NCBI GenBank assembly: GCA_030038895.1
Contig: JASHQX010000163.1
Coordinates: 1-48,805, forward strand
Length of the DNA stretch: 48,805 nucleotides
Direction: 5' to 3'
Source of the DNA: Thermoplasmata archaeon
GTDB taxonomy: Archaea > Thermoplasmatota > Thermoplasmata > Lutacidiplasmatales > UBA184
The notes under the pieces are model-generated. The model worked only from the letters and a program-made list of their open reading frames with translations, was not told the origin of the DNA and did not search any database. Of the stretch, positions 1 to 16,475 are shown piece by piece. Both the position numbers and the translations under genes were made by a program. The stretch's first letter is position 1, and every line of letters begins with the position of its first letter.

Positions 1-1
1 T

Positions 2-400
2 CAACAATCCCCGAGCAGCAGCGCGCCCGCCGCGAGCCGCTCGAGCCCCATGCAGGTAGATTGCCTCCGTGATCCCGAACCGCGCGTAGAACCGCGCGGC
101 CCTTCGCCAATCGGCCGCGAGAGTCTCCGCGAGCCCCGGCGTTGTCGCGACCACCGCCCTCGTGACCTTGACAGGAGACCGCCGCTCGCGCAGCCTCCGT
201 GCCTCCTCGCGCTCGTCCGCCTCGCGGGAGTCGTCGGGAAGACCGCTCGTGATCTCGAACGCTGCGAACTTCCGCGTGGGGGCCGCGATCTCCTCCGCGT
301 CCTTGTCCGCACCCGGAAACGCGATCCGCGCCTCGACCCGCGTCCGGGTCCCCGGGACGAAGGACCGGGGATGCGACGACCCCGAAGGGCTGGTCTGCAA
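2..400 (-). CDS. A1: repeat-family small protein, long copy; start tentative and no stop before the window edge
   Basis: The minus frame is open 2-400 and is absent from the ORF track. It reads ..RIAFPGADKDAEEIAAPTRKFAAFEITSGLPDDSREADEREEARRLRERRSPVKVTRAVVATTPGLAETLAADWRRAARFYARFGITEAIYLH.. The only in-frame start is TTG at 398-400. Confidence 0.5.
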   Translation of the reverse strand, partial: MQTSPSGSSHPRSFVPGTRTRVEARIAFPGADKDAEEIAAPTRKFAAFEITSGLPDDSREADEREEARRLRERRSPVKVTRAVVATTPGLAETLAADWRRAARFYARFGITEAIYLHGARAARGGRAAARGLL

Positions 401-599
401 GCTGTTGTGCGGGTGACGCGCGGGGTCGCGGTCGGGCAATGCGATCGTGGTGGAAAGCAGCGAGAGCCGCGCGGGCCGCGTCGGCGGGGCGGGAGTTCGG
501 ATCGGATTTGATATTCGAAAATCGGACTCGCTGCGTCTAAAGGAAATATCTGAGGAGTCCTATTGAGGCTGAGAGGATTCCTGACTCTCCTCCGCGGAG

Positions 600-1559
600 A
601 TGAGCGACGCGGGTTCCGCTGTTCGGTTCGGTCGTACGCGTCGGCCGTGGATTTATTCGTTCGCTGGGATTGCGGTTGCCCTCTTGATTGTAGTCGGATT
701 TGGCCCGACCGGGCTCCTTCTTCCTCGGAGTACCATCTGCCAAAAGGGAGACCTCGTCGGGACATACGCGATCTGGACTCCAGATACTCCCTTGAACAAA
801 CCAGAGGGAGTCAACGTCTCCGCGGCAGCCCAGATCGGGGGATGGAACTTCACCTTCTCATCCGGGTCGGTGATCGTGGGCAGTATTCACCCGTCGGAGT
901 TGGCCGCTGGCGGATGGGGTGACCGCGGCTCTGCGTCCGGAATCTCGATGCAGGGGGCGGAGGTCAACTGGTCCTTCTACAGCGTTCACAACACTTCTGT
1001 GATCGGGACTTCCTCGAATCCTTGCGTGCAGCCGTACGTTGCTGAAATGGAGTCTCCTCCAGTTCAACAGTGTGGTGGGTTCGTCACGATACCGCTCGTC
1101 GACAACACAAGCGATGTTGTGGAACCGCACGTCTGGAATGGCGAGCTGGGTGTGAACTCATCGTCGCCTGAACCTCCGAACTGTCCTCCCACGACCCCTG
1201 GCGCTTACATCTGGTTCGACATTTCTTTCCATGAAAATGCGACTGGGGCCGCTGCCCCAGTCCAGTGGAACCTCTGCAATTCCACGGGTACCTTTCCGCT
1301 GGTACTTCCCGGGGTTGCCGAGATCCCGGTTGTTGTCTATGCTCCCTATGAAGGTCGCGAAATTTCCGCGAGTGGCGCTCAAACATGGGTAGGCCTTCCT
1401 AACGGTGGAAATACTCCCCCTATTGAATTTTGGACCGCAAACTACAGCGTGCCGGGGGGTTGGCTCTGGATGCTCGCCCCGGTCGGACCCACGCCCGCAA
1501 CGATCAACCCGGAACTGCCGCTCCCATCCTTAGTCGCTTTCGAGCGGCTCGCTTGTTGA
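600..1559 (+). CDS. Cargo 1: membrane-anchored secreted protein, probable surface glycoprotein
   Basis: ATG at 600. N-terminal TM segment WIYSFAGIAVALLIVVGFGP, then a Cys-containing ectodomain with about nine N-x-S/T sequons (NVS, NFT, NWS, NTS, NSS, NAT, NST, NYS). Confidence 0.7.
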   Translation: MSDAGSAVRFGRTRRPWIYSFAGIAVALLIVVGFGPTGLLLPRSTICQKGDLVGTYAIWTPDTPLNKPEGVNVSAAAQIGGWNFTFSSGSVIVGSIHPSELAAGGWGDRGSASGISMQGAEVNWSFYSVHNTSVIGTSSNPCVQPYVAEMESPPVQQCGGFVTIPLVDNTSDVVEPHVWNGELGVNSSSPEPPNCPPTTPGAYIWFDISFHENATGAAAPVQWNLCNSTGTFPLVLPGVAEIPVVVYAPYEGREISASGAQTWVGLPNGGNTPPIEFWTANYSVPGGWLWMLAPVGPTPATINPELPLPSLVAFERLAC

Positions 1560-1576
1560 ACGAGCGGGCCTCGTGC

Positions 1577-1927
1577 CTAATCCGTGGTTTCATCGACGAT
1601 CTCGTGACGGAACATCTCCTCCGTGATCCCAAACCGCGCGTAGAATCGTGCCGCCCTCCGCCAGTCGCTCGCGAGGGTCTCGGCGAGCCCGGGCGTGCTC
1701 GACACGACCGCGCGGGCCCGCTTGACGCGAGCGCGAAGGTCGCAAAGTAGTCGCTCCTCGGCGCGTTCGTCCTCTTCTCGCAAGTCATCGGGCGGCCCGC
1801 TCGTGATCTCACAGAGGCTGAATCGTCGCGTCGGGGTCGCAATCTCCTCCGCGTCCTCGTCCGCGTGTGGGAATGCCAGACGGGACGCGAAGCGGGTACG
1901 CGCGAAATCTTGGGGGTGGGGGCACTT
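1577..1927 (-). CDS. A2: repeat-family small protein, full-length copy with its own stop; start codon unresolved
   Basis: Open frame reads ..TRFASRLAFPHADEDAEEIATPTRRFSLCEITSGPPDDLREEDERAEERLLCDLRARVKRARAVVSSTPGLAETLASDWRRAARFYARFGITEEMFRHEIVDETTD*. The ORF track lists only the TTG-1783 part. There is no in-frame ATG/GTG/TTG upstream of the AFP motif. The nearest GTG (1929-1931) is out of frame. Confidence 0.55.
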   Translation of the reverse strand, partial: KCPHPQDFARTRFASRLAFPHADEDAEEIATPTRRFSLCEITSGPPDDLREEDERAEERLLCDLRARVKRARAVVSSTPGLAETLASDWRRAARFYARFGITEEMFRHEIVDETTD

Positions 1928-2012
1928 TCACAGGAGGACTCGCGGTCGTGGGCTTTGCCGCTCTACCGGGAAAGATTATTCGGCGAAGTCACGAATCGTA
2001 GCATGGGCTCGG

Positions 2013-2609
2013 ATGCGTTCTGTGTTCGCGCAACCCCGCAGACTGTCATCTGAAGCCCGTGCCGTCTTCGCACTAGCCGCCGCCATTGGCATATTCTTCA
2101 CAGCGACCGTCGCCGGGGTCTTCAATGTGGGAGTTTACGGTTGCCCGACCTGCACGACGAGCGATAACGGGCGACAAACGTCCTGCAACGGAAATGAACC
2201 GACCTACTGCGGCGGAGGTCTGCTCGCCCTCGGAGTCTCAATCTACCTTCTGAGCACCTTGAGCTTCCTCTTTGCGTGGAACTGGATGCTGGCATCTCGA
2301 CGGCCCTGGGAGACCAGTCAGGGTGCGTGGCGGGCCCGCCGTTCACTTGAAACGCCCGTCGTTAATCGGTTTCTGGCACTCACCCTTCTCGCCAACGGGG
2401 GCGGCCTGATATGGCTGGGCCTTTGGACGACCCCGAACTTCTGTTTGCCTATCGAAGGGCCGTGCGGGATTCTGCGCTACGTTCTCACGGGTGTTCCCCT
2501 CATACTAGTGCTCGTCGGATGGGCCGCGTTTGCTCTCGGAATCGCATTCTATCTGCCGGGATTGATTCGCGCGTTCAGGGAACCCCGCGCCGGAGCAGCT
2601 GCTCCGTAA
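2013..2609 (+). CDS. Cargo 2: 4-TM membrane protein with a Cys-rich loop
   Basis: Internal ATG at 2013 of ORF 1695..2609; the upstream part is antisense to A2. Hydrophobic segments AVFALAAAIGIFFTATVAGVF, LLALGVSIYLLSTLSFLFAW, FLALTLLANGGGLIWLGLW and LTGVPLILVLVGWAAFALGIAFYL. Loop GCPTCTTSDNGRQTSCNGNEPTYCGGG. Confidence 0.65.
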   Translation: MRSVFAQPRRLSSEARAVFALAAAIGIFFTATVAGVFNVGVYGCPTCTTSDNGRQTSCNGNEPTYCGGGLLALGVSIYLLSTLSFLFAWNWMLASRRPWETSQGAWRARRSLETPVVNRFLALTLLANGGGLIWLGLWTTPNFCLPIEGPCGILRYVLTGVPLILVLVGWAAFALGIAFYLPGLIRAFREPRAGAAAP

Positions 2610-2709
2610 TCCCAGACTGCGCGAAGAACCCTGGCGTCGGGGTCGCGATCTCCTCCGCGTCCTCGTCTGCGGACGGGAAGGCGAGCGAGGATTCGGAGGG
2701 GGTAATCAT
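2575..2709 (-). CDS. A3: internally deleted mini copy of the repeat family (44 codons, in-frame ATG)
   Basis: Reads MITPSESSLAFPSADEDAEEIATPTPGFFAQSGITEQLLRRGVP*. ATG at 2707-2709 lies 30 nt upstream of the TTC(F) codon. It overlaps the 3' end of cargo 2 in antisense by 35 nt. Confidence 0.4.
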   Translation of the reverse strand: MITPSESSLAFPSADEDAEEIATPTPGFFAQSGITEQLLRRGVP

Positions 2710-2748
2710 ACGTCTGGCCCCGTCATTGCATTCCACGCCCAAACTAGC

Positions 2749-3276
2749 TCATAGGACCGGGATGCGGTATTGCGTGGATCCCCAGAAGCCAAGCCCCACC
2801 GTCGGCCCCGGACCGCAGGCCTTCAGCACTACGGTAATCTGGCCGTTGCCCGTCGTGAAGGTGCCGACGCCGGAGCCAGGACCCCCCGTAGATACGAAGG
2901 AGTAGGAAGCACCGGGGCCGAGAATCCACACGTTCACGGTCGCGTCGGATTCGTTTTGGGTCAAGTCATAGGTAACAACCCCGTTCGCCGGAAACGGGTG
3001 TGTGATCGTTACGTTCGACCCACACCCGAAGTATCCGTTGAAGTACGTCGTCCCCGTGGGTAGGTTCCGGGACAGATTGAACATCTGGGTCCTCGGGACC
3101 ACGGGCACGACAACGAGGGCGATCACCACACCCGCAACGACCACAACGGCGATGATCGCGAACAACAGCCTTCCTCGGTGACGCGGAGGTGGCGAGGGCG
3201 GAAATCCAGACACCGGGCTCGGCTGCTCTGCCCGATCTAGTCCGAGCGCCCCCGGGGGAGGCTGCCCGTCGGACAT
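2749..3276 (-). CDS. Cargo 3: membrane-anchored secreted protein
   Basis: ATG at 3274-3276. Pro-rich N-terminus, TM segment LLFAIIAVVVVAGVVIALVVVPVV, then a beta-rich ectodomain with NLS, NVT and NES sequons. Confidence 0.7.
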   Translation of the reverse strand: MSDGQPPPGALGLDRAEQPSPVSGFPPSPPPRHRGRLLFAIIAVVVVAGVVIALVVVPVVPRTQMFNLSRNLPTGTTYFNGYFGCGSNVTITHPFPANGVVTYDLTQNESDATVNVWILGPGASYSFVSTGGPGSGVGTFTTGNGQITVVLKACGPGPTVGLGFWGSTQYRIPVL

Positions 3277-3547
3277 TTCCAGTAGATACGCGGGTCAGGA
3301 TAGAGTCTTTTCGGACGGTCGGGCATCGTGTCCGACAGCCCCGACGCGACCCAATACTCGAGCGTCTCCTCGGTGACTCCGAACCGCGCGTAGAACATCG
3401 CCGCCCTCCGCCAGTCGCTCGGAGCGTCTCCGCCAGCCCGGGCGTGTTCGCGACCAGCGCGCGCGCGACTTTAACGCGCCCGCGCAGCTCGCCCAGCCGC
3501 CGCGCTTCCTCGCGCTCGTCCTCCTCGCGGAAGTCGTCGCAAAGGGC
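3237..3547 (-). pseudogene. A4: repeat-family copy lacking the N-terminal motif and carrying a 1-nt deletion
   Basis: Starts right after the stop of the upstream gene: NALCDDFREEDEREEARRLGELRGRVKVARALVANTPGLAETL. The frame then shifts at about 3417-3422 (gctcggag versus gctcgcgag in A2) into SDWRRAAMFYARFGVTEETLEYWVASGLSD.. Confidence 0.7.
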
Positions 3548-3548
3548 G

Positions 3549-4160
3549 TTACCCGTACCCCGTCCATCTGGTACGCTTCGGCATGGCGAGAATCTCCTCG
3601 ACCTTCATCCGCTTCTTGGGGTCTTCTCCAACCGCCTCCTCGAACCGCGAGGCCGTCATGACGATGGCTGAGTCTGCTCCCCAGCCCGTCCCGGCCATCG
3701 AGACGACCCGTTCTCCGGCTCGCACCACGCCGGCCTCGACGGCGACGAAGACGATCTCCACGGCCGTCCGGAAGCCATGCCCTCCGACACAGATCAGCGT
3801 CATCCAGAACAGGTCGGCGCTGGGACCGGGCAGGTGGACGGTCTTCTTCTCCCACCAATTCCGAAACGTCAGGCTTCGTGTCAACGGCTCAGGAACCGTG
3901 TCCACCACGATGATTCCTTGTTTCAGGAGTTCCTCCTTTCGCAACGCGGGCTTCTGATATTTACGGCGGGTCACGGGGTCGTAGGTCACACAGATGACCG
4001 AGACGGGAGCGAAAGTCTTCCCCAGCTCCAAAGCGAGTTTTCCGCTTTCTGATGCTACCAGGACCTTGTTGATGTCATTCTGACGAAGTCGGCGTTTGAC
4101 CGCCTGCACTACCTTCGCGGTGTTCTCCGCCCCCGGGCCTTCGAAGAAATAGATCGCCAT
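3549..4160 (-). CDS. Cargo 4: standalone pyruvate-kinase C-terminal (alpha/beta) domain-like protein
   Basis: Internal ATG at 4158-4160 of ORF 3549..4460. Reads MAIYFFEGPGAENTAKVV..VLVASESGKLA..GFRTAVEIVFVAVEAGVV..VVSMAGTGWGADSAIV, the pattern of small archaeal PK_C-like proteins. The first 100 codons of the tracked ORF belong to A5. Confidence 0.6.
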   Translation of the reverse strand: MAIYFFEGPGAENTAKVVQAVKRRLRQNDINKVLVASESGKLALELGKTFAPVSVICVTYDPVTRRKYQKPALRKEELLKQGIIVVDTVPEPLTRSLTFRNWWEKKTVHLPGPSADLFWMTLICVGGHGFRTAVEIVFVAVEAGVVRAGERVVSMAGTGWGADSAIVMTASRFEEAVGEDPKKRMKVEEILAMPKRTRWTGYG

Positions 4161-4333
4161 CCATCGAGTCACGCTCGCGGAAAACAATACCGTATCCGGC
4201 GGACGGGCTGTTTGAGTCCGCCCGTGCCTGCGATCCCTCTCAGAGGTACGAAGGAGCCCCCGTGGAATGGCAAAGCGAGTCACATTCCGACAAATCCCCA
4301 CATAGGGGGACTCCGAATCGAAGTTGCGCCTCC

Positions 4334-4482
4334 GTGTTCCAAATCGCGCGTAGAGCCGGGCGGCCTTCTTCCAGTCGGCCCGGAAGATCTCGGACAGACC
4401 CGGAGTGGTCGCGATTTCCTCCACGTCCTTGTCCTCGTCCGGGCCCGGGAACGCGACCAAGGGACCAATCCGCGTGTGTCAT
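4334..4482 (-). pseudogene. A5: internally deleted mini copy (N-end fused to C-end)
   Basis: Reads (TTG 4458-4460) LVAFPGPDEDKDVEEIATTPGLSEIFRADWKKAARLYARFGT. The homologous ATG (4480-4482) lies 31 nt upstream of TTC, so it is out of frame. The frame runs on without a stop into cargo 4. Confidence 0.55.
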
Positions 4483-4528
4483 CCAACTTACGGCACGTTC
4501 GGTCGCGTGGCTGCCAACAAACCGGACG

Positions 4529-4780
4529 CTAGAACGAACACCCCGACGCGTTTCCGAAAGAGACTCCGGCGACCACTAAGACCGCTACCACGATGAGGAG
4601 GAAGATCAGGAGAGCGTTGCCTTCATGGCCGGCCGCCACTCCACCGACCAACGCGATGGCCGCCCCGAAGACAATCAGTGAGAGTCCGCCGCCGCAGACA
4701 CGGAACGTCAAGATGCCCAGGACGAAGAGCGCTATGGAAACCGAGACCACCGCGATCGTCCCGATCCCTCGGGCGTTCAC
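4529..4780 (-). CDS. Cargo 5: 83-aa three-TM membrane protein
   Basis: GTG at 4778-4780. Reads MNARGIGTIAVVSVSIALFVLGIL..LSLIVFGAAIALVGGVAAG..ALLIFLLIVVAVLVVAGV. Confidence 0.55.
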   Translation of the reverse strand: MNARGIGTIAVVSVSIALFVLGILTFRVCGGGLSLIVFGAAIALVGGVAAGHEGNALLIFLLIVVAVLVVAGVSFGNASGCSF

Positions 4781-4802
4781 GCTCCTTCGATACCATCAGG
4801 GT

Positions 4803-4965
4803 TCATCTCGGTACGCAATTCGTCGCCCAGCAGCGGTCTAGAGCGCGGGGGACTCGGCCGACCCACCTGGACTCGTGCGAGGTGATCCCCTGCGACTCGG
4901 TAGCGTAATCCTCCGCGTCCTCGTCCGCGGACGGGAAGACGAGAAAGGACCCGGAGCGCGTTCAC
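4803..4965 (-). pseudogene. A6: degenerate mini copy
   Basis: The family frame reads TRSGSFLVFPSADEDAEDYATESQGITSHESRW..*, preceded by an in-frame TGA. GTG at 4963-4965 lies 28 nt upstream of TTC, so it is out of frame. The GTG-frame ORF ends in a TGA that overlaps the GTG start of cargo 5. Confidence 0.5.
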
Positions 4966-5007
4966 AACAGGTTCTAAGGCTTCGGAGTCATTAGTCCAAG
5001 CGAGGTT

Positions 5008-5289
5008 ATGGCTGATCTGAACACGGCGGCGGCAGATCAAACCATAATCTCTTCTTGGACACGCGATTATCGCCTCAGCCTCGCGCTTCTCGTGGCGGGT
5101 ATCGTCGTGGTTGTGGCCCTCTGCTCCTTCAGTTTCTGGGCGAACTCGACAGGAAACTACCCAACGTCATTTGGCGCCGGCCTTGCCATCGATCTCATCG
5201 GAACCGCCGGGGCAATGCTGATACTCCTAGCCGGGACCGTCGCTTACTTTCATTGGAGGGGTCTCCAACTAATCCGGGGCAACGCCTGA
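5008..5289 (+). CDS. Cargo 6: 93-aa two-TM membrane protein
   Basis: ATG at 5008. TM segments LSLALLVAGIVVVVALCSFSFW and AGLAIDLIGTAGAMLILLAGTVAYF. Confidence 0.55.
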   Translation: MADLNTAAADQTIISSWTRDYRLSLALLVAGIVVVVALCSFSFWANSTGNYPTSFGAGLAIDLIGTAGAMLILLAGTVAYFHWRGLQLIRGNA

Positions 5290-5473
5290 TCTGGCCCACG
5301 CGGGGAACCGCTTGAAGGGCGCCCCGTGCGAGCGGGCGTCCGCGGTCGGTCGCGCCGGCAGCCTTCACCCGCGCTCGCATCCCTCGCGGACGCTGAACCT
5401 CCGCGTCGGAGTGGCAATCTCCTCGTCGTCGGCGCCCGGGAACGCGATCCGCGACTCGCCCCGGATCCGCCAC
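5290..5473 (-). pseudogene. A7: degenerate repeat-family copy
   Basis: The family frame reads ESRIAFPGADDEEIATPTRRFSVREGCERG* (stop 5365-5367). A residual RVKAAGA.. match sits in another frame. GTG at 5471-5473 lies 31 nt upstream of TTC. Confidence 0.5.
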
Positions 5474-5507
5474 TGGTCGCGGGGAGGGCGGCGCGCGGGA
5501 CTGCGAG

Positions 5508-5885
5508 CTAGGGGCTCCGAGACTGCCCCGGTGCCTCTGGGGTTGAGGAGGGAGGCGTCTTCGAACGCAGGCTCGGACCGTAATCATACTCCGCCCACTT
5601 TGGCCACCCTCGGGGCTCCAAATCTAGCTCAGCCCACACGCCGTACAGGAGTCCGAGAGCCAAGAAGAGGACGCCGCCAAAAACGAAGAGGTCCGCTGCA
5701 AACAGGTGGGGAAAGACACATCCGGTCGTTTGGCCCCCCTCTACTACCGGAATGCAGTATGTGTACAGGAAGATCGCACTAACAAAGGCCGCTGCCGACA
5801 CGATGAAGCAGACGATCGTGAGCAGGGCATGCCGAAGGAAGTTGATCGGCGGCCAACGGTCCGACGGTGCACTCGTGTTCGCCAT
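5508..5885 (-). CDS. Cargo 7: 125-aa membrane protein
   Basis: ATG at 5883-5885. TM segments LLTIVCFIVSAAAFVSAIFLYTY and LFVFGGVLFLALGLLYGVW, with a Pro/Ser-rich tail. Confidence 0.6.
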   Translation of the reverse strand: MANTSAPSDRWPPINFLRHALLTIVCFIVSAAAFVSAIFLYTYCIPVVEGGQTTGCVFPHLFAADLFVFGGVLFLALGLLYGVWAELDLEPRGWPKWAEYDYGPSLRSKTPPSSTPEAPGQSRSP

Positions 5886-6046
5886 GCCCGTGGGCAGCGT
5901 GAAGGGAAGCAGGACAGACGTATCAGCTTCGTCAAGCGCGTTTTACACGCTCACGGGCCCCGGAAAACTGCCTGGGGCGTAGGAGATGCCCGCTTCATCC
6001 CTTCAGGACCGGGGGATCCTTTCCCGAAACATATTCTCGCTAATCC

Positions 6047-6339
6047 CTACCGTGAGTAGAATCGCGCCGCCCTCCTCCAGCCGCTCGCAAGAATCTCCGG
6101 AACCTCCGGTGTAATCGCGACGAGTACCCTCGCCGCTTTCACGTGGCCTCGTAGTCCGCGAAGTCGCCGCGCGCCGACTCGAATTGCCCCGCGTCGAAGA
6201 CGAGCCGACCGATTGCCCGGACTCGGCCCGCCTCGAGGCTTGCGGCGGCCTCGGCATTTTCGTGCACGACCTCGACCGGAGGGCGCGGCGCGGGTGGGGA
6301 CTTCGGCCACTCGGGTGGCGGAAGCTCGCTCGCGGTCAC
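6047..6339 (-). pseudogene. A8: divergent copy with a novel N-terminal part and the family C-end in the -1 frame
   Basis: Frame a (GTG 6337-6339) reads VTASELPPPEWPKSPPAPRPPVEVVHENAEAAASLEAGRVRAIGRLVFDAGQFESARGDFADYEAT*. Frame c reads ARRLRGLRGHVKAARVLVAITPEVPEILASGWRRAARFYSR* and aligns codon-for-codon with A4. The junction is a GTGA stop/start overlap at 6139-6142. Confidence 0.5.
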
Positions 6340-6345
6340 CCCCGT

Positions 6346-7125
6346 CTATCGTCCTGCGAACGTGGGTGTGCGCTTCTCGAAGAACGCCCGAATTCCCTCC
6401 TTGTAATCCTCGCTATCGTAAATCTGCCGACGAATCGCCTGAAGGCGCTCGAACGTACCGGCGCTCAGAGGCCGGGCGGCGGCTAGCTCTCGGAGCTCCT
6501 GCTTGAGCAACGAGATGACAAGGGGAGAGTTCCGACCGATGTCGGCGGCGACCTCCGAAAGTGCCGCATCGAGCGCAGCGGCCGGAACGACGCGATTCAC
6601 CACCCCCGCTTGAAGCGCCCGTTCCGCCGATATCGGCTGGGCGCCGAAGAGCATCTCCTTGATGAGAACCATGCTCACAGACTGCATCAGATTCAGGACG
6701 CCGACGACGTCGTACGGCAGTCCAATCCTCGCCGGGGTGATCGCGAACGTGGCGGAGTCCGCCGCAAGGACCATGTCGCAGGCGGTGATCAGCTCGAACG
6801 CGCCTCCCCAAACCCCGCCTTCCACGAGCGCGATCACTGGCCCGGGGAATTCCTGAACCTGACGAATCAAACTCCGCATCGGGTCGCCGTAGGTGAGAGG
6901 GTCCCTGCCTCCCTTTGGCAGCTCGCGGACATCGTGTCCCGAGGACCACGTCTTCGCTCCCGCGCGAGCACGAATGACCACCAACCTCACACGGTGTTCC
7001 TGCAGCTGGCCCAGCCCTTTGGCGAGCTCCCCCACCAGAGCAGAACTCAACGCGTTCCGGGTGGCGGGGTCATTCAGGGTGAGGGTTCCAGTTCCTCTGC
7101 TTTCCGAGATTTCGACAAGGGCCAT
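6346..7125 (-). CDS. scpB: Methylmalonyl-CoA decarboxylase-like enoyl-CoA hydratase/isomerase family protein
   Basis: Close motif match to E. coli YgfG/ScpB: SSGHDVRELPKGGRDPLTYGDPMR, EGGVWGGAFE, IYDSEDYKEGIRAFFEKRTPTF. Start set at the internal ATG 7123-7125 (MALVEIS..). Confidence 0.8.
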   Translation of the reverse strand: MALVEISESRGTGTLTLNDPATRNALSSALVGELAKGLGQLQEHRVRLVVIRARAGAKTWSSGHDVRELPKGGRDPLTYGDPMRSLIRQVQEFPGPVIALVEGGVWGGAFELITACDMVLAADSATFAITPARIGLPYDVVGVLNLMQSVSMVLIKEMLFGAQPISAERALQAGVVNRVVPAAALDAALSEVAADIGRNSPLVISLLKQELRELAAARPLSAGTFERLQAIRRQIYDSEDYKEGIRAFFEKRTPTFAGR

Positions 7126-7646
7126 GGCGAGCAAGAATGCAATTCCTGCCATAAGCGGCGCCCAACTCGTCGCTCGATGGGCAACGGGTGCCCCTCTCCG
7201 CAACAGGTGATCCCTCGCAAAAGGCGGATTCGTCATTTCAACGGGCTGCGGCTGAGGGAAATGAGCATGAGGGTCGGGAGTCCCCCCCGGAGCGCAGAAA
7301 CGGTTGGCTCCGATCGTTTCGGTGGAGGACCGAGCGACCTCGGAGTACGAGGACTCGGCTAGCCGGGCGAACGAGCGCTATAAAGCCGTCTCAGGGGCCC
7401 AACCGAATCACCTTTCGCTCGGTACATTCGGATTTAGTGGCAGAACTTCTCGTGTCAACTCGGTTTGAGGCGACCGCCTCGCACCCTCAGACCCGGGAGG
7501 AGGAGCGTGATGGTCGCAAGCACTCGGACGGGCTAGTCCTCCGGCGCACCGGCTTTCACCTCGCCGCCGCCCGTTTCACTCTCCACCCTGTCCAGAGACT
7601 TCACTCTCGGGCTCGGAGGAGACCGACCGCCTCTTTGGGCATGGGT

Positions 7647-8393
7647 TCATCCGGGCGTCGTCACGCTGGCGTGTGCAAGCTTTTCTTCGACCAACGCGAG
7701 AGACCGGGAGACAGCCGACTTCGATCGGCCGAGTTTCTTGGCGAACGCAGTGAGTGTTATTCGGCGAGGGACGTCAAAATATCCATCCGCGAGCGCCTGA
7801 TGCAAGAGGGCGTATTCCCGAGACGTGAGACTGGGTGGGCAAGCAGACAGCCGGGCGCGGCCGAACCTGACGACCTTTACGCCGTGAGCGATCTTCCCGA
7901 GGTCCTCAATAAGCCGCCGTAACTGGGAGATCGTTGCGGCGACCTCCACCGTGTGCACCCCGTCGCGGACGATTCGGGGGTACCGAAGAAGAGCTCCCAA
8001 TCGACGCGTGAGGTCGACGTAGTCGGGACGCACATTGATGACCATTTGATACCGGGACCTCGGTCCGACCGGAGTAAGCAGGATAACTGATACCACGCCC
8101 GGTTCGTGAGCAATCTCCTGTGTGAAGTCCCGGGGGGCAGACGTGGTAATCTCGAACTCGACAATGAATCGGTCCGGGGGTAGTTGCTGAATCGCAGTCA
8201 TGCTTACTGCGATCTCGGGGTGGGAACGAGACAAGTCCCTCAGTGGCAAGTCTTGAACGGTTTCGAAGCGGAGCCGAACGATTGCGAAGCGATCCTGTTC
8301 TTGGGGTGAAAAGCGGGCGCCTCCGAGGATGGAGATCTCTTCGGCATCCGGAACCTTACGACCATGCGATCGATCGAACGGAAGCTCGACCAC
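7647..8393 (-). CDS. HTH_10 (bacterio-opsin activator-type) transcriptional regulator
   Basis: C-terminal region LTSREYALLHQALADGYFDVPRRITLTAFAKKLGRSKSAVSRSLALVEEKL. GTG start at 8391-8393. Confidence 0.75.
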   Translation of the reverse strand: MVELPFDRSHGRKVPDAEEISILGGARFSPQEQDRFAIVRLRFETVQDLPLRDLSRSHPEIAVSMTAIQQLPPDRFIVEFEITTSAPRDFTQEIAHEPGVVSVILLTPVGPRSRYQMVINVRPDYVDLTRRLGALLRYPRIVRDGVHTVEVAATISQLRRLIEDLGKIAHGVKVVRFGRARLSACPPSLTSREYALLHQALADGYFDVPRRITLTAFAKKLGRSKSAVSRSLALVEEKLAHASVTTPG

Positions 8394-8718
8394 GGACGCT
8401 GGGGGTACCCGGCGATACGGACACGCCGCCTAAAGATTGGCATCGGCGCAGGGGTACGACAAGCGACCGAGGGCGGCGACTAAATCCTCGACCTGTGCCG
8501 ACGACTTACGTGGCCCTGCAGCCAATTGACCGTAGTCACTTTCACAGAGTCCAAACCCGCCCTGGACTGAATTCCCCTTGTCCACTCCTTCCCCCGAACG
8601 TCCTCGGTCGAAGCGAGCGGGGAAACGCGCCGCATGCGACCACCTCGAAAACGTCGTCCGGGCGATGGTCCTCATTCAACCGCATCCGGAGATAGTAAAG
8701 GGCCGGACCTGCTAGTCC

Positions 8719-9015
8719 TTGAGGATGGATTCACCCAAAGTCGAGCGCGTGCACCGATACCGGCTCGGGGCCGGGACGTTGGTTTGGGCGGCGGTCACCT
8801 TGGGTATCGCACTCGTTCTTGCCGGGTTCTTCCGCGGAACCTACCTTGCGGTCGTCGGTGAGTTGCTGGTCGTTCTGGGCGCTCTCCGGCCGTGGCCCTT
8901 CGACCTCGTCCCGGGGGAGGTGATTGCGGCGCGATTGGGGGACCGGGATCGCTTGGCTCGAGCCTGGGCGGGTCAGTCACATTCTCCCTCGGGACCCTCG
9001 CCACCGGCCCGGTGA
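8719..9015 (+). CDS. Small two-TM membrane protein (hypothetical)
   Basis: TM segments LVWAAVTLGIALVLAGFF and LAVVGELLVVLGAL. No recognisable family. Confidence 0.35.
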   Translation: MRMDSPKVERVHRYRLGAGTLVWAAVTLGIALVLAGFFRGTYLAVVGELLVVLGALRPWPFDLVPGEVIAARLGDRDRLARAWAGQSHSPSGPSPPAR

Positions 9016-9107
9016 TAGGTCGGGACTGCTGACGCAATGACCGCCAGATTCACCGACCGATTCAGGAAAGTATTGTCGCCGGACCGCGAGTCGTTTCGGA
9101 GGAACCG

Positions 9108-10199
9108 ATGGCGTCCACTCTAGCGCGGATCCGCCGGGTGATTGCTGCCGTCCCTCGTGGGAAGGTCATCACGTACGGCCATGCCGCCGCGGCCGCCGGC
9201 TTCCCCGGGGCGCCGCGCCTCACCGTCCGGGCGCTCCAGAACGCCGAGGGACTTCCGTGGCACCGTGTGGTGGGCGCAGGGGGCCGCATTGCGCTGCCAG
9301 GAGAGGACGGACGAGAACAGCGGCTGCGGCTGAAGATGGAAGGGGTCACCTTCCGCGGAAATCGAGTCCGAATGGACCTCCACGACTGGGTCCCGAAAGC
9401 GCGCAGAGGTACTGAACACCCTGCTTCTCGTCCCTCGGTGAGAGTTACCAGATATAGGGACAGGTACGGTTCTCCGCCGAACTCTCTCTTGACCGACGAA
9501 TGGGTGGAGTGGCACCAGAGATACTCGAACGACCGACTTCTGGTCGAACGCCTCGAAGAGGTACGCCGACAGATCCGAAAGGCGTTGGATGGCAGCCCCC
9601 CCGGTTCGATCCGAGCGATCAGCATGTGCTCGGGGGACGGGCGCGACCTTCTCGGGGTCCTCGCCGATCACCGGCGGGCGAACGACGTCTCGGCGCGGTT
9701 CGTGGATCTCAGTCCGGAGCTCGTCGCCGCCGGTCGCGAGCAGATTCGACGTCTGCGACTTCCCCGAGCGGAGTTCGTGCTGGGGGATGCGGGGACGACG
9801 ACCGCATATGCGGGAGCGGTTCCGGCGAACCTGGTCCTTGCCTGCGGCGTCTTCGGTAACATCCGCAACGAGGACATACGGAGGACCATCGATACCCTTC
9901 CCGAGCTCTGCGCCCGAGATGCGACGGTAGTCTGGACGCGCGGCACGTTCGAGCCGGACCTCACCCCGGCCATTCGGGACTGGTTTCGGGACGCGGGCTT
10001 CACCGAAATTTCGTTCCGCAGGATCCCGGGAACAACCGCATCAGTCGGGACTCATCGTCTTACAAAACGCGCACGGCGGTTCCGTAGCGGGGTGCGCCTG
10101 TTCACGTTCCTTCCGAGGAACGAGCGGCCGTCCTCCCGTGCGGCTCGGACCCGGAGCGAAAGCTCGTCCATCGGCCCGCGTCGGCAGATTCCCCCCTAG
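9108..10199 (+). CDS. Alkyltransferase-like (ATL, Cys-less MGMT DNA-binding domain) fused to a class I SAM-dependent methyltransferase
   Basis: N-terminal region VPRGKVITYGHAAAAAGFPGAPRLTVRAL..GLPWHRVVGAGGRI, with PWHRV replacing PCHRV. C-terminal region ISMCSGDGRDLL..FVDLSPELV..VLACGVFGNI, a Rossmann methyltransferase pattern. Confidence 0.7.
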   Translation: MASTLARIRRVIAAVPRGKVITYGHAAAAAGFPGAPRLTVRALQNAEGLPWHRVVGAGGRIALPGEDGREQRLRLKMEGVTFRGNRVRMDLHDWVPKARRGTEHPASRPSVRVTRYRDRYGSPPNSLLTDEWVEWHQRYSNDRLLVERLEEVRRQIRKALDGSPPGSIRAISMCSGDGRDLLGVLADHRRANDVSARFVDLSPELVAAGREQIRRLRLPRAEFVLGDAGTTTAYAGAVPANLVLACGVFGNIRNEDIRRTIDTLPELCARDATVVWTRGTFEPDLTPAIRDWFRDAGFTEISFRRIPGTTASVGTHRLTKRARRFRSGVRLFTFLPRNERPSSRAARTRSESSSIGPRRQIPP

Positions 10200-10240
10200 T
10201 CCCCCAGGAGGGGGTGGAGCCGGTACGAGCGAAGCCTTGA

Positions 10241-11014
10241 ATGGGTCTCCACCCGTCCTCGAAGAGGATGGACCGGGGGCTGGTTAAGGCCTATCGGACA
10301 GCCGAAGATTACCAGCGGTACGTCGTGGGGAATCCGGACCGAACCCGTGCGCTAACGGAATTCTACCAACGACACCGCCGACACTTCGGTCGCAGCATCC
10401 TAGACCTGGCGTGTGGCGGAGGGATCCTTGGTTCGGTCCTTGAACCGACGGGAAGGCGCTACCTCGGCATCGATTTCAACCACGACATGATCCGCGAAGC
10501 GCGAAACGCGGCCGCCGCGCGTGGGTCTCGTCAGCGGTTCCTGCTGGGCGACGCCGTGAGCGCCCGCATTCCGGGCCAGTTCGATACGCTTACTCTGCTT
10601 GGGAATGCGCTGGGGCATCTCACCGCCTCCGATATGGATACGCTCCTCCGGCATCGCGCAGCCAACGCAAAAGAGGGGAGCACGTTCCTGATCGACTACC
10701 GTGACGTGGTCGGGATGTTCTGGCGGGGAAGCTGGAGCCATGGTCCCTATATCGAGACCCACAAGCGTGGCAAGACCGTGCATCGGACCCGAAGAGTCGA
10801 CCTTCGCCGAGGCGTGATCCTCATTCGGGCCCGCTCGGCCTCCCGGAAATGGTCGGTGGATCTCACGCACACGATATGGTCGCCCTTCATTCTCGAGGCT
10901 GTGATGCGCGCGCGAGGGTGGAAGCTCATCCGCCGCTCGCTTGGACGCCCGGGACCGGGCGCTCGACCGACAATCGATTACTGGGAGGACGTGTACCGAT
11001 TCACCGGCGCGTGA
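10241..11014 (+). CDS. Class I SAM-dependent methyltransferase
   Basis: Motif I ILDLACGGGILG, then YLGIDFNHDMI and TLTLLGNALGHL. Confidence 0.75.
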   Translation: MGLHPSSKRMDRGLVKAYRTAEDYQRYVVGNPDRTRALTEFYQRHRRHFGRSILDLACGGGILGSVLEPTGRRYLGIDFNHDMIREARNAAAARGSRQRFLLGDAVSARIPGQFDTLTLLGNALGHLTASDMDTLLRHRAANAKEGSTFLIDYRDVVGMFWRGSWSHGPYIETHKRGKTVHRTRRVDLRRGVILIRARSASRKWSVDLTHTIWSPFILEAVMRARGWKLIRRSLGRPGPGARPTIDYWEDVYRFTGA

Positions 11015-11110
11015 CGCGGGAGAGGCCGGTCGGACGGAAGCCGATCCGTGGGTTCGATTTCGAAAAACTCAAACCTTGGGTTCTTTTCCTCGAGAATTGG
11101 AGACCCGCAA

Positions 11111-11917
11111 ATGGTGGAGCAGGAAGTCAAGATTCCAAGCCAAGGCCGAGAGCTGGACTGTTACATTGCGTATCCGCCTCGACGGGCCGGGAAGTCTCCG
11201 GCCCTTGTGGTGATCCACGAGATATTCGGACCGGAGGCCCACATCCGTGGCGTCGCCCGGCGGTTCGCGGCGGAGGGGTACGTCAGCGCAGCCCCGAACC
11301 TGTTTACGGGTGAACTCCAGCGTCTCCTGACCCCACAGAACATCGCCTACGCGATGCAGGCGTTCGCCCAGGCTCCGCCGGACCTACGCCGAAACCCGGC
11401 GAAGCTTGCCGAGTTCGCCGCCTCTCAACCTGCGGAACGGAGACCGGTCTTGGAAGCGTTCGGAAAGATCTCGACTCCCCCCGTCCAGGCGAGCTTTGCG
11501 CAGGACCTGAAGGCGGTCACCCGGTACCTTGCCACGCTCCCGGAGGTGGCGGCGGATCGGATCGGATCGGTGGGGTTCTGCTTTGGGGGCGCGATGTCCG
11601 GCCGGCTTGCGACGGTCGACCCCGATCTCCGCGCGGCGGTCATCTTCTACGGACAGAACCCGCCCCTTGCGGACGTGCCCCGGATCCGCGCGAGGGTCCT
11701 CGGTCTCTATGGGAGCGAGGACCCGGGGATCACGAGTACCGTCCCCGAGCTCGCCGAGGCGATGCGCCAGGCTGGCAACCGCTTCGACTATCACGTCTAC
11801 CCCGGCGCCAAGCACGCGTTCTTCAACGACACTCGGCCGAACTACCACAAGGAGAGCGCCGAGGACGCCTGGAACCGGGTGACGCGGTTCTTCGCGGAGA
11901 CGCTCGGGTCGGCCTGA
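11111..11917 (+). CDS. Dienelactone hydrolase family protein
   Basis: PALVVIHEIFG, nucleophile elbow VGFCFGG, and C-terminal GAKHAFFND. ATG at 11111 preferred over GTG at 11048. Confidence 0.8.
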   Translation: MVEQEVKIPSQGRELDCYIAYPPRRAGKSPALVVIHEIFGPEAHIRGVARRFAAEGYVSAAPNLFTGELQRLLTPQNIAYAMQAFAQAPPDLRRNPAKLAEFAASQPAERRPVLEAFGKISTPPVQASFAQDLKAVTRYLATLPEVAADRIGSVGFCFGGAMSGRLATVDPDLRAAVIFYGQNPPLADVPRIRARVLGLYGSEDPGITSTVPELAEAMRQAGNRFDYHVYPGAKHAFFNDTRPNYHKESAEDAWNRVTRFFAETLGSA

Positions 11918-11944
11918 CTCGCGACGCGTTCAGACCGCCTGGTC

Positions 11945-12415
11945 CTAAGCGCCGGCGACCGTCACTTCCACGATCCGCACCGGCGTCCGGGGTCGATCAT
12001 TCTGATCGCGCGGGACGGCCGCGATCTTCTCGACGACCTCCTGCCCGGAACGGACCCGGCCGAACACCGCGTGCTTACGGTCGAGCCATGGGGTCGGCGC
12101 GAGGGTGATGAAGAACTGGCTGCCACCGGTATTCGGCCCCCGGTTTGCCATCGACAGGACTCCGGGCCCGTCGTGTCGCAGGGTCGGATGGAACTCGTCC
12201 GAGATCTCGTAGCCCGGATCGCCTGTGCCGTCGCCCTTCGGGCAACCCCCCTGGATCATAAACCCGGGGATCACGCGGTGGAACGTGAGGCCGGTGTAGA
12301 ATCCCTTTCGGGTGAGCGTGACGAAGTTCTCGACCGTCTTCGGCGCACGGTCTCGGAAGAGCTCAATGCGGATGTCGCCCAGGGTCGTGCGGAGCGTTGC
12401 GGTGGGGTTCGCCAT
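11945..12415 (-). CDS. Cyclophilin-type peptidyl-prolyl cis-trans isomerase
   Basis: [45 protein letters not shown] at 12413-12415. Confidence 0.9.
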
Positions 12416-12531
12416 GGCGTCGCCAGAAGTCGCGGGCGTAAAAGGGTCGGGGGCTCGCGACTCCTCCAACCGTTTTATGTGGAAGCAATCGGCTAATCGA
12501 AGACCGGACGGAGGGCGACGGGTCCCGTTCG

Positions 12532-13053
12532 ATGAACCGTTCGATCGTACTGGTGGGAGTAGGAATCATCCTCGCCGGACTCGCGCTGGTCGCATCGCCG
12601 ATCGTTCTGACGGGAACCGAGGTCTTCACGATTGAGCAAGAGGCGGGAATCTTCCTCACCCCGGTCGGCCTCCTCGTGATCATGATCGGCGCGGTCCAGG
12701 CCAACCCCGCGATCACCACGGTCGGGGGGACGTTCGGAAACCCGGACATGACCCCGAAGCGGCCGGCGGCCCAGCCGTCAGCGACGGTCATCCGGACCAC
12801 CCCGCTCGGGTACAATCCACGCGAGCCAGTGAACTGCCGGCACTGCGGCTCGGTGATCACGTTCGACCTCGCCTTCTGCCCGAGGTGCGCCCGCCCCCGC
12901 GAGTGTCGCGGATGCGGGCGACCATTGGGGATGGCGGAGGACCGGACCGATTGTCCAGGGTGTCACCGGGTCGAGGCGTTCTGCAACTGCCCGCGCCTCG
13001 CCCGTCCGCGAGGAGCCTACACCTCGACGACGGTTCGGACCCGCCGTTCCTAG
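12532..13053 (+). CDS. Membrane protein with a C-terminal multi-CxxC zinc-ribbon tail
   Basis: Two N-terminal TM segments, then CRHCGS..CPRC..CRGCG..CPGC. Confidence 0.6.
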
Positions 13054-13063
13054 GGGGCGGTTT

Positions 13064-13606
13064 GTGGAAGACCGGGACCTACCGCGCGGCGTGGCGACCG
13101 TGAGCGGCCCGGTCACCGTCCATTTTGACGGGGCGTGCGAGCCCCCGCGAGGGGGAGGGATCGCCACCTTCGGCTTCCATCTCGAGGGGGGTGGTTTCCT
13201 CCACGAGGACCGCGGACTCGCGGTCGCCCCGAAGTCGCCCCACTCGACGAACAACGTTGCAGAGTACTCGGGTGCGATCCACGCGCTTGCGTGGTTGGCG
13301 GCTCACGGCTACGCCGGTCCGGTTCGCCTATTCGGGGATAGCCAGCTCGTGATCCGCCAGATGAAAGGGGAGTACGAGGTCCGGGCGGAGCACCTCAAGG
13401 CCTACCACCACCACCTTTCCCAACTGGCCGCCCGGTTCGAGCGAGTGGAGTACGAGTGGGTCCCCCGCGAATCGAACGCCCGGGCCGATGCTCTCTCGAA
13501 ACAGGCGCTGCGCGAGGCGATGGCCGACCTCGGTAGGCGGGTGGTGGGTCGCCGTACCAAAGAAGTCTCGAACGACTCCAGTCAAGACGAATCGCAGGAT
13601 CCCTAG
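13064..13606 (+). CDS. rnhA: Ribonuclease HI
   Basis: FDGAC..GGGIATFGF, NNVAEYSGAIHAL, FGDSQLVIRQMKGEY, WVPRESNARADALS. GTG start is tentative. Confidence 0.8.
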   Translation: MEDRDLPRGVATVSGPVTVHFDGACEPPRGGGIATFGFHLEGGGFLHEDRGLAVAPKSPHSTNNVAEYSGAIHALAWLAAHGYAGPVRLFGDSQLVIRQMKGEYEVRAEHLKAYHHHLSQLAARFERVEYEWVPRESNARADALSKQALREAMADLGRRVVGRRTKEVSNDSSQDESQDP

Positions 13607-14156
13607 CTCCAGCGTACGGTGTAGATCAGAGTTCGACCCTCGATCGCCGCCCGGGCACGAGCGGAGTCGACGTACGTCGCGAACGCCGCGGCCGCCTCCG
13701 GCGAGAGCTTCGGTCGAACCCCGTAGCCCCGCGGGCTGCCCTCCCCCAAGACCGGGGGGACCAATGGAGCGAGGATTACCGTAGGCGGCAGGGAGGGTTT
13801 CCGGCCCTCGCTCGCGCTCACGAATCCTCGCCGAACGTAGGAAAGCGACCCGTGAGATGGCCGACTACACAGGGCAGTACCGCCAGCGGGCAAGCCGGAG
13901 CGTCGAACGAAACGAGATCGAGCGGTGCCGCCGCGAGCGATGTCGGCCGCTCGTATCCGTCCGACATGGTATCCCAACGGTTGTCAGACGTACGTCATAC
14001 ATAAAGACGCATCCTCGATTGGAAATACGGGCACGGGGTTTCTTACCCGACAGAAGCCGATGGCGGACATCCGGCAGACCCGGTCGAGTCCCCAATGGTC
14101 GTGAGCCCCTTCTTATGGGGGCGACTCGGCTCTTCTTCCCCGAGGGAAGGGACTGA

Positions 14157-15890: not shown

Positions 15891-15985
15891 TCCAGAGCTC
15901 TTCCGGGGACTCTAGGCCCCCGGCCTTTGCTAGCGCGCGTGCTCCGACGACTGTAAGAACCTCGGGCGAGATAGTCTGACCGGCG

Positions 15986-16456
15986 ATGCTCCTTCTGCCG
16001 GGCGAGCGGACGATCCGGACCGCCTACGCCGTTCTTGGCGCCGAGTTCCGCCCGATCGGTGTTCGGGGTCCCGGGGTCCTTTATCTCACGAGCCAGCGAC
16101 TCGCGTTCGAGGCCCCCGCATCGCGCGGAAGGGTCCGCGACTACCTCAAGGGTCGCGACACCGAGCTTGTCGTCAGTCGCTCACTCCACGAGATCGTCAA
16201 CGCCACGGTCCGCCGAGGCCGAATCGGCCGACCATGGTTGGTCGTCCACGTACCGAACGGGCGGGTAGCGTTCGACGTCCTGGAGCCCGAGGCCTGGGTG
16301 GGTGCGATTGCCCAGGCGAAACGAGTGTTCGCACCGCCGACCAGCGAGGTGCCGACAATCATCGAGCGCCAGGTGGTCAAGATTCGCTGTCGGTACTGCG
16401 GCAGCCTTTCAAACGAGGTCGACGGGCGATGCCCGAACTGCGGCGCCGCGCTCTAA
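15986..16456 (+). CDS. PH/GRAM-like domain protein with a C-terminal zinc ribbon
   Basis: GVLYLTSQRLAFE..LVVHVPNGRVAFDV, then CRYCGS..CPNCG. Confidence 0.55.
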   Translation: MLLLPGERTIRTAYAVLGAEFRPIGVRGPGVLYLTSQRLAFEAPASRGRVRDYLKGRDTELVVSRSLHEIVNATVRRGRIGRPWLVVHVPNGRVAFDVLEPEAWVGAIAQAKRVFAPPTSEVPTIIERQVVKIRCRYCGSLSNEVDGRCPNCGAAL

Positions 16457-16475
16457 TGGCCCTCGGGTCCGTGGT

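Follow-up and report, generated by a model that had tools for sequence, protein, structure and literature searches.

Co-oriented copies of a lineage-specific gene alternate with small unrelated genes in an array of a Thermoplasmata archaeon

We report that one end of a 48,805-nt contig from a Thermoplasmata archaeon (GenBank assembly GCA_030038895.1, contig JASHQX010000163.1; the window analysed here is the entire contig) carries an array, at positions 1-6345, in which eight copies or pieces of one gene, referred to as A, alternate with seven small genes (the cargo, c1 to c7) whose proteins show no similarity to one another. Together with approximately 0.5 kb beyond the window edge, this stretch is probably a chromosomal, partly decayed gene-cassette array in which A-derived blocks served as recombination junctions. 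It looks like an array type specific to Thermoplasmata of peat and soil lineages, and we found no published description of it. The remainder of the contig codes for ordinary metabolism.

The array and its strain variation

Searches by tblastn with the copies A1 and A2 as queries detected eight A copies, all on the minus strand, in window 1-6345. With A1 as query the E-values were 4e-39 for A2, 1.8e-17 for A4, 3.5e-13 for A8 and 2.9e-9 for A5, followed by A3 (1.3e-5; 1e-6 with the A2 query), A7 (3.2e-5; 4e-7) and A6 (0.05; 3.6e-4), and in the other 42 kb of the contig neither query had a match better than E = 0.014. A family hidden Markov model (HMM) of 174 positions, built from 70 database homologues, recovered seven of the eight copies, A6 falling under the cut-off of the scan, and the DNA repeat families D1-D7 are consistent with this picture. 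Every gap between adjacent copies holds exactly one open reading frame (ORF), and the probability that all eight copies share a strand by chance is approximately 0.8%. An earlier note, made from the sequence alone, had described eight same-strand copies alternating with seven unrelated genes; tblastn, the HMM, the ORFs and the comparison of the cargo proteins all bear this out. Its likening of the layout to an integron in which the punctuation is coding sequence and not an attC hairpin is supported too.

In minus-strand translation the copies display the recurring motif ..R.AFP..DEDAEEIATPTR.F...EITSG.PDD.RE.DER.EE..L..LR.RVK.ARAVV..TPGLAETLA.DWRRAARFYARFGITE..., and they are 60-80% identical to one another. 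The idea of an ORF of roughly 100 codons repeated eight times fits the two near-complete copies only, A1 and A2; the other six are broken, that is, fragments of 25-70 codons with deletions, a frameshift or stops. Specifically, A4 and A8 are 3' parts, A6 and A7 are 5' parts, and A3 and A5 are internally deleted hybrids, while the family N-terminus is carried by none of the eight.

A1 (1..439, minus strand as for all copies; HMM 24-155) is the sole intact ORF, with 159 aa from a TTG start at 437-439, and it runs past the contig end to a stop located 41 nt further left in the sister contig L103. A2 (1568..1963; HMM 30-161; stop at 1577-1579) has a near-complete core with no ATG, GTG or TTG before the conserved N part, and its only canonical ORF is 68 aa long. 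The hybrid A3 (2578..2703), which overlaps the 3' end of c2, joins HMM 52-77 to approximately 141-152 ('..EEIATPTPGFFAQSGITEQLLRRGVP*'), and in the hybrid A5 (4308..4478) HMM 52-72 is fused directly to 116-151. A4 (3339..3544) consists of HMM 86-127 and 126-154 in two frames, with a frameshift near 3420, and starts 2-5 nt past the c4 stop. The weakest copy, A6 (4872..4961; D2/D3), has nothing left except approximately HMM 52-75, 'FLVFPSADEDAEDYAT', and A7 (5330..5520) covers HMM 34-81, then a stop and the out-of-frame 'RVKAAGAT' (HMM ~106-116). In A8 (5981..6178) HMM 97-139 is followed by an in-frame stop at 6047-6049; the extension of this copy to 6339 in the earlier note was mistaken, as 6180-6339 is not homologous to the A family and a separate 66-aa gene is called at 6139-6339.

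The common denominator of the punctuating copies would be a core block of ~75 nt, codons ~48-72. In A1 it is exemplified by 254..343 (minus strand, ~75-90 nt, nucleotide-conserved), which encodes ..RTR(F/V)E(S/A)R.AFPG.DEDAEEIA..., and further minus-strand copies, belonging to repeat families D2/D3/D5, are found at 1808-1897, 2614-2703, 4380-4478, 4872-4961 and 5383-5469. A3, A5, A6 and A7 keep little besides this block. A1 and A2 are 73-77% identical at the amino acid level to copies in other metagenome-assembled genomes (MAGs) vs 70% to each other, and judging from these values they are not recent local duplicates.

Five independent assemblies (three NCBI MAG assemblies, one ENA and one Logan assembly, from different samples and assemblers) are collinear and gap-free with window 3243-15022 at 98.0-99.95% identity. 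The array has the same order in all of them and is therefore not misassembled, which settles the concern raised by the earlier note. Leftward, L103 (window 1-2994 plus 514 nt) continues the array over these 514 nt, with an eighth cargo gene, cargo0, on the minus strand beyond the A1 stop (124 aa, basic). Past cargo0, a further contig, L107, runs into a proteasome subunit gene, so that housekeeping genes enclose the array on both sides. As for the contig ends, approximately four to six of eight lie inside A copies; with A sequence making up ~28% of the array, this enrichment is too weak to use; sister contigs end in or near A copies at window 3436, 5366, 4417 and 1.

L107, which contains the closest relative of A1 (79% aa), differs from the window in cassette content. 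It shares its source sample with the window-like contig L101. L101 1732-1872 equals L107 1-141, an exact 141-nt overlap within one MEGAHIT assembly (k = 141) at the A5 core block; such an overlap suggests a branch in the assembly graph at the A5 repeat and hence a possible polymorphism within the sample. Aligned to the window, L107 1-151 matches 4557-4407 at 96.7%, its first 115 nt being identical, and this left similarity stops at ..GAGGARATCGCG ('EEIA', HMM ~72 of A5), i.e. at the A5 junction (~4409). The right similarity begins at GGGACSCGGACGCGGGTCGAGGCGCGGATC ('GTRTRVEARI', HMM ~48 of A1, window ~352), from where L107 2949-3814 matches window 352-1 and the L103 extension at 95-96%. Between these flanks L107 has a single cargo of 686 aa plus what remains of an A copy with a full core, and the window has c4-A4-c3-A3-c2-A2-c1. 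Both breakpoints thus lie at the two edges of the ~75-nt block, exactly where recombination within the block would place them. The earlier note had proposed looking in related genomes for gain, loss or permutation of cassettes; gain, loss and replacement are found, and their breakpoints fall inside the repeat.

In sister species with an ECH gene 77-85% identical, the array is absent at the ECH locus. Among 53 metagenome loci downstream of ECH, neither flank is kept in relatives at 77-85% identity, and this comparison shows the absence of the array only. The glycosyltransferase gene at window 46906-48321 lies 2-3.6 kb upstream of ECH in the sister species (L047 288-1463, L052 1-1154), and the ECH neighbourhood has therefore been rearranged between lineages. 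The ECH gene itself is 268 aa long in the public call vs a 296-aa ORF in the window.

The A family, related loci and shared cargo

A is a lineage-specific gene of, by our reading, ~170 codons: full-length family members have 160-190 aa and the N-terminus MTA(M/I)SA..ANPFPDLP. At 90% clustering, database searches returned 179 proteins with the A2 query and at least 347 with A1, nearly all with a Thermoplasmata label, and a profile search gave 515 clusters at 50% identity. Named members belong to 'Thermoplasmata archaeon' MAGs from peat and soil, and in the genome collection we found 36 A loci from ~15 MAGs, all labelled Thermoplasmata apart from one labelled just 'bacterium'. A arrays of like architecture recur in other Thermoplasmata MAGs, and the family, being multi-copy and arrayed, is not the singly occurring ordinary regulator that the earlier note had held possible.

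That note could not place the ORF in any family, and the library searches agree with it: the A core has no match in Pfam, NCBIfam, PHROGs or PADLOC (the last with four family members and A2), the best hit of a PDB profile search was not meaningful (E = 0.98), and a search of IMG/VR found no viral relative. An identity as a known toxin-antitoxin or defence component has no support from PADLOC. The suggested MerR/excisionase-type helix-turn-helix (HTH) is likewise unsupported. AlphaFold2, run on a 27-sequence alignment, predicts a disordered segment (residues 1-78), a confident helical hairpin (89-139) and a short helix (144-149), the mean pLDDT of 69 leaving room for a cryptic fold in the N-half; neither sequence nor fold matches an HTH or excisionase, and Foldseek with this model gave no match in PDB and a best E of 0.57 in BFVD.

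Long isoforms (P0166, P0184, P0133, P0126, L039 9599-10342, L032, L036) have an insertion between the N-terminus and the core. It is usually an extra domain of ~65 aa ('TY..R..L...GLRWDP..H.WHGT') that matches nothing in Pfam or PDB and may resemble DUF5710; in the fusion protein P0166 a SLOG/YAcAr domain (PF10686, E = 1.8e-9) stands in its place, the sole library match among the family searches. There are also contigs in which the A frame reads without a stop into the downstream cargo, as in P0172 (799 aa), where A is joined to a large repeat-rich surface protein; such frames could be either real fusions or gene-calling artefacts.

Synonymous divergence (dS) is 0.25-0.55 over HMM 44-85, which contains the core block, and ~1.08 in the 3' half (HMM 86-152), showing that the region of codons 44-85 is conserved at the nucleotide level. 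In the same 3' half the ratio of nonsynonymous to synonymous divergence (dN/dS) is ~0.2, whether two full copies, two truncated copies or one of each are compared. The block has no conserved fold (RNAalifold on 24 diverse copies: -4.3 kcal/mol, one compensatory pair), and an overlapping alternative-frame ORF starting from the ATG of the truncated-copy junction was rejected as the cause of the synonymous conservation, as it is short and unconserved. On reading the A sequences we saw synonymous differences in linked blocks, which suggests mosaicism.

The related loci are polar. Scanning L001-L043 in six frames with the HMM gave 90 unique A matches, every one on the strand of the query copy, and a typical array has a full A copy first and then 5'-truncated copies 0.4-5 kb apart; of the fragments downstream of a full copy, 23 of 26 are 5'-truncated. 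Many truncated copies, across MAGs, share a junction with an in-frame TGA just before ..RTRFESR (HMM ~48), and these copies have no in-frame start codon. Tandem duplication of cargo and A is seen in L041 (10716-12317 vs 15178-16786, 77% nt identity), which has three paralogous cargos.

Directly upstream of full-length A lies a conserved leader of ~165 nt (L002 9835-10001, L005 9854-10001, L017 6992-7159 and 16 other loci), for which 48 pairs are predicted with 96.8% of cells paired. Its compensatory pairs number 21 vs 13.4 in shuffles, a value that none of 500 shuffles reached, and moving the 3' partner by 1-3 columns gave at most 0.077 vs 0.306 for the real structure. In the closing helix the 15-mer GCGCTSATYGCGGTC, ~165 nt upstream of the start codon, pairs with A codons 1-5 and covaries with the MTAMSA, MTAISA and MTATSA variants. 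G-U and A-C mismatches are equally rare, so that RNA and single-stranded DNA are indistinguishable as the folded form. Rfam gave no match at the leaders of L002, L005 and L006, nor in window 1-7000 (E <= 1).

The first ~60 nt of the leader, referred to as R60, recur in nearly all intergenic gaps up to 10 kb upstream of full A (L005 3070-9854, L002 4336-9835, L026 451-9548, L013 1482-6516, L105 136-10974). All 123 unique R60 copies are co-oriented, the intervening genes may be on either strand, and R60 sequence variants common to several MAGs are mixed inside single arrays. The R60 arrays are thus a second repeat-gene-repeat type, with cargo families in common with the window array.

Apart from A and the cargo, the commonest family in the related loci is IS110 transposase (11 copies in nine loci: among them L018 18293-19554, L016 203-1316, L023 6746-7915, L030 5371-6717, junctions in L034 and L038, and the leader of L019). 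Insertion into the repeats is precise, within R60 at GCGCTGATTG^CGGTC, within the leader and within A at codon ~90; an identical junction in A occurs in two MAGs, and L019 has an apparent footprint. IS110 looks like a parasite of the A and R60 repeats. Integration at tRNA genes was considered and rejected: no tRNA gene flanks the arrays, and only two unrelated tRNAs occur among 19 loci.

The cargo comprises c1 (600..1559, plus strand; an N-anchored, NxS/T sequon-rich surface protein of 319 aa), c2 (2022..2609, plus; 195 aa, a membrane protein with four transmembrane (TM) segments), c3 (2749..3276, minus; 175 aa, with an N-terminal TM anchor), c4 (3549..4160, minus; 203 aa, cytosolic, with a pyruvate-kinase C-terminal-like (PK_C-like) domain, Pfam PF02887, E = 3e-8), c5 (4529..4780, minus; 83 aa, hydrophobic), c6 (5008..5289, plus; 93 aa, two TM segments) and c7 (5508..5885, minus; 125 aa, three hydrophobic segments, no Pfam match). 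Five of the seven, c3-c7, are called as genes in public assemblies, the exact c7 protein in at least four public contigs, and c2 is called in L103 (2536-3123). Some pipelines call A5 and c4 (window 3549-4460) as one gene of 303 or 291 aa. With its N-anchor and many sequons, c1 resembles a surface glycoprotein.

Cargo is shared between arrays. The families of c1, c6 and cargo0-like proteins recur in repeat-punctuated arrays of other MAGs in differing contexts and orientations. For c1 there are 29 homologues, those named carrying a Thermoplasmata label, and several sit between R60 or leader repeats; c6 is 81% identical at the nucleotide and 72% at the amino acid level to a cassette between two R60 repeats in MAG CAVTJV (L013 3951-4248). 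The cargo0 protein (L103 68-442) begins MPYKDPERRRQAARKW..., and an R60 cassette of L017 (~1360-1460) holds a similar 'NPEKRREYYRRYR' ORF.

Elsewhere in the window, a 577-aa ORF (14157-15890, plus strand) matches Peptidase_M2, the angiotensin-converting enzyme family, from end to end (E = 3e-204), which is unusual in an archaeal contig. A 180-aa gene at ~13064-13606 on the minus strand (L098 1417-1959), 7 kb from the array, has RVT_3 and weak RNase H Pfam matches, and we saw no link between it and the array. At L006 12364-12438 there is a fluoride-riboswitch-like sequence (27.9 bits, gathering score 34; E = 1e-3).

Recombination at the block and alternative explanations

The mechanism, like any role of an A protein in it, is one that we infer. 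The array would be punctuated by whole or partial copies of A, and recombination between their co-oriented blocks would insert, delete or replace the intervening DNA, i.e. one small gene and the adjoining remainder of A. Most simply this recombination would be homologous or microhomology-driven, and a dedicated site-specific enzyme is possible; each event would leave hybrid or truncated A copies as scars. Recombination between direct blocks would explain the hybrid and truncated copies as well as the strain difference, and as the repeats must remain direct, their orientation would be fixed and that of the cargo free. Since A1 is the only translatable copy, A2 is startless and the other six are fragments, the working genes are taken to be the cargo, which presumably encodes one PK_C-like protein besides seven small proteins of the membrane or surface. 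At most, the pieces of A in the window would be recombination scaffolds.

Several observations weigh against an array shaped by block recombination. The evidence for replacement comes from a single comparison, that of L107, a contig assembled from short reads, with window/L103. A fixed gene order in relatives, which the earlier note counted as adverse, does hold among strains at least 98% identical, whose assemblies show no cassette variation, and fails for L107; either exchange is rare, then, or a single strain makes up most of what was sampled. No recombinase was found in the large ORFs of the window, the gene calls of window 3.4-15 kb, the 514-nt extension (the leftward direction in which the earlier note had proposed looking for an integrase or recombinase) or four Pfam-annotated related arrays, and the only recurrent one in the related loci is IS110. 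Moreover, the window breaks the polarity rule of the related loci: it contains internal fragments, whereas a full head copy, the leader, R60 and the truncated-copy junction are all missing. Its array could be a relic past recombining. The dN/dS of truncated copies equals that of full copies, and some truncated copies may be expressed in some unseen way. Finally, local duplication occurs too, as the paralogous cargos of L041 show.

A bolder account, which we put forward tentatively and hold to be less likely than not, is that the window array is one, decayed, face of an unrecognised archaeal gene-capture platform. Its hub would be the leader and A, with cassettes arranged polarly around it and moving between arrays and genomes by block recombination, the upstream ones marked by R60 and the downstream ones by 5'-truncated A. 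The machinery might be unlike integron integrases, candidates being the A protein as a site-recognition factor or an untraced recombinase, and the IS110 elements would be parasites specialised on these sites. With substantial probability, leader, A and R60 together form a system more distinct than a variant of repeat-punctuated cassette arrays.

Two further explanations appear unlikely, and about equally so. According to the first, the array is a tandem paralog cluster in decay, in which A and its neighbour were duplicated locally many times and then diverged and eroded, with no cassette traffic. The earlier note had listed this possibility, and it was partly right: six of the eight copies are indeed broken, L041 documents a tandem duplication of this kind, and strains at least 98% identical are invariant. 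On the other hand, local duplication leaves unexplained why the seven cargos are mutually dissimilar, why A1 and A2 resemble one another (dS > 1) less than they resemble copies of other genomes, why the L107 replacement breaks at the A block, why c1 and c6 turn up in differently punctuated arrays, and why the sister species have no array at the ECH locus.

The second takes the array for a collection of functional two-gene modules, in which every A copy is expressed, or was until recently, as a small regulator, antitoxin or chaperone that acts on the adjacent cargo. The dN/dS of ~0.2 in full and truncated copies, the intact 159-aa ORF of A1, a leader whose pairing with the start codon of full copies suggests regulated expression, and a gene placed 5-10 nt after A in L001 and L002 all favour such modules. 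Yet most window copies are startless or have stops, a frameshift or internal deletions, the truncated copies elsewhere have a conserved in-frame TGA and no in-frame start, cargo type and orientation vary freely, and neither PADLOC nor Pfam reveals similarity to toxin-antitoxin or regulator families.

Far less probable, and largely refuted, is a classical integron-type array, i.e. a cluster of attC sites lacking an integron-integrase (CALIN), in which attC would lie inside the repeat and IntI would be encoded elsewhere. The repeat-gene-repeat layout, co-oriented repeats and single-gene cassettes are those of a CALIN, and integrons and CALINs have been described in archaeal MAGs (PMC9668308). 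However, the conserved block has no conserved hairpin, as the folding of the 24 sequences shows, no R''/R' core motifs were seen on reading the sequences, no annotated locus has a tyrosine recombinase, and the repeats consist of coding sequence, 130-400 nt long and truncated at differing points; the stem 'Thermoplasmat' is also absent from the main text of PMC9668308. That the array is an assembly artefact, with collapsed or chimeric repeats at a contig end, is a negligible prospect despite its terminal position and the sister contigs ending in or next to A copies, given the agreement of the five assemblies and copies too divergent, at 60-80% identity, for collapse.

Comparison with known systems

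Integrons are the textbook prokaryotic means of stockpiling and shuffling single genes, and to our knowledge only canonical IntI/attC integrons have been reported from archaea, in MAGs only. If confirmed, the Thermoplasmata arrays would represent a second, independent solution to gene capture and a source of surface-protein variation in uncultured archaea; they would also add a new structured nucleic-acid element, a new protein family and a naturally occurring collection of targets of IS110 (bridge-RNA) recombinases. In the literature we found canonical archaeal integrons only and nothing on the A family; the canonical integrons and CALINs of archaeal MAGs described in PMC9668308 are the sole archaeal precedent found.

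With respect to R60 of the related loci (not the window), the repetitive extragenic palindromic (REP) repeats, their bacterial interspersed mosaic elements (BIME) and pdif modules offer one parallel, as they include short, structured, IS110-targeted intergenic repeats and, in the case of pdif, genes bordered by sites on which host recombination enzymes act in trans. R60 differs in being strictly co-oriented and clustered by A genes, neither dispersed nor in inverted pairs, and it is not known to be linked to a REP-associated tyrosine transposase (RAYT) or to Xer.

The orphan modules of polymorphic toxins (cdiA-CT/cdiI of contact-dependent inhibition (CDI) systems, Rhs) and the pilS silent cassettes likewise have a full gene followed by 5'-truncated, startless, protein-like copies, and truncated A copies could be swapped in by homologous recombination via the conserved stretch. 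In contrast to orphan modules, the variable part on A is a tail of 10-40 aa only, the genes next to A, which encode unrelated membrane proteins or enzymes and may lie on either strand, match no toxin or immunity family, and there is neither a secretion-system context nor a PADLOC match.

Tandem accretion at a target gene, as in tRNA-gene islands or elements that bring a replacement 3' end for their target, offers a parallel to the related loci, where co-oriented 5'-truncated copies come after an intact one, unrelated DNA separates them, and a conserved junction sequence is common to genomes. The inserts of A arrays, however, are single small genes with no integrase, the only transposases being those of IS110 inside the repeats, and the A copies, at 60-80% identity, are not exact att duplications. 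In addition, 5' fragments also accumulate ahead of the intact copy, and the window lacks a head copy that is intact. As regards a fixed crossover point, many 5' truncations in the related loci lie at HMM ~48 with a conserved junction, and those of the window are scattered over HMM 24-97.

Compared with integrons and CALINs, the A arrays have no IntI or other tyrosine recombinase in the annotated loci and the contig, and their repeat, part of a protein-coding gene, forms no conserved hairpin and is truncated at varying points, with cargo on either strand; the related MAGs moreover have the second punctuation, R60, polar around one full unit of leader and A. Integron attC sites are colonised by IS1111-attC elements, and IS110-family elements colonise the A and R60 repeats in a like manner. 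Furthermore, in both systems mostly single-gene, functionally unrelated cassettes lie between co-oriented conserved repeats, a single array mixes several repeat variants, and related strains carry different cassettes, the breakpoints being located at the repeats. The Thermoplasmata arrays thus follow an integron-like logic without any of the parts that define an integron.

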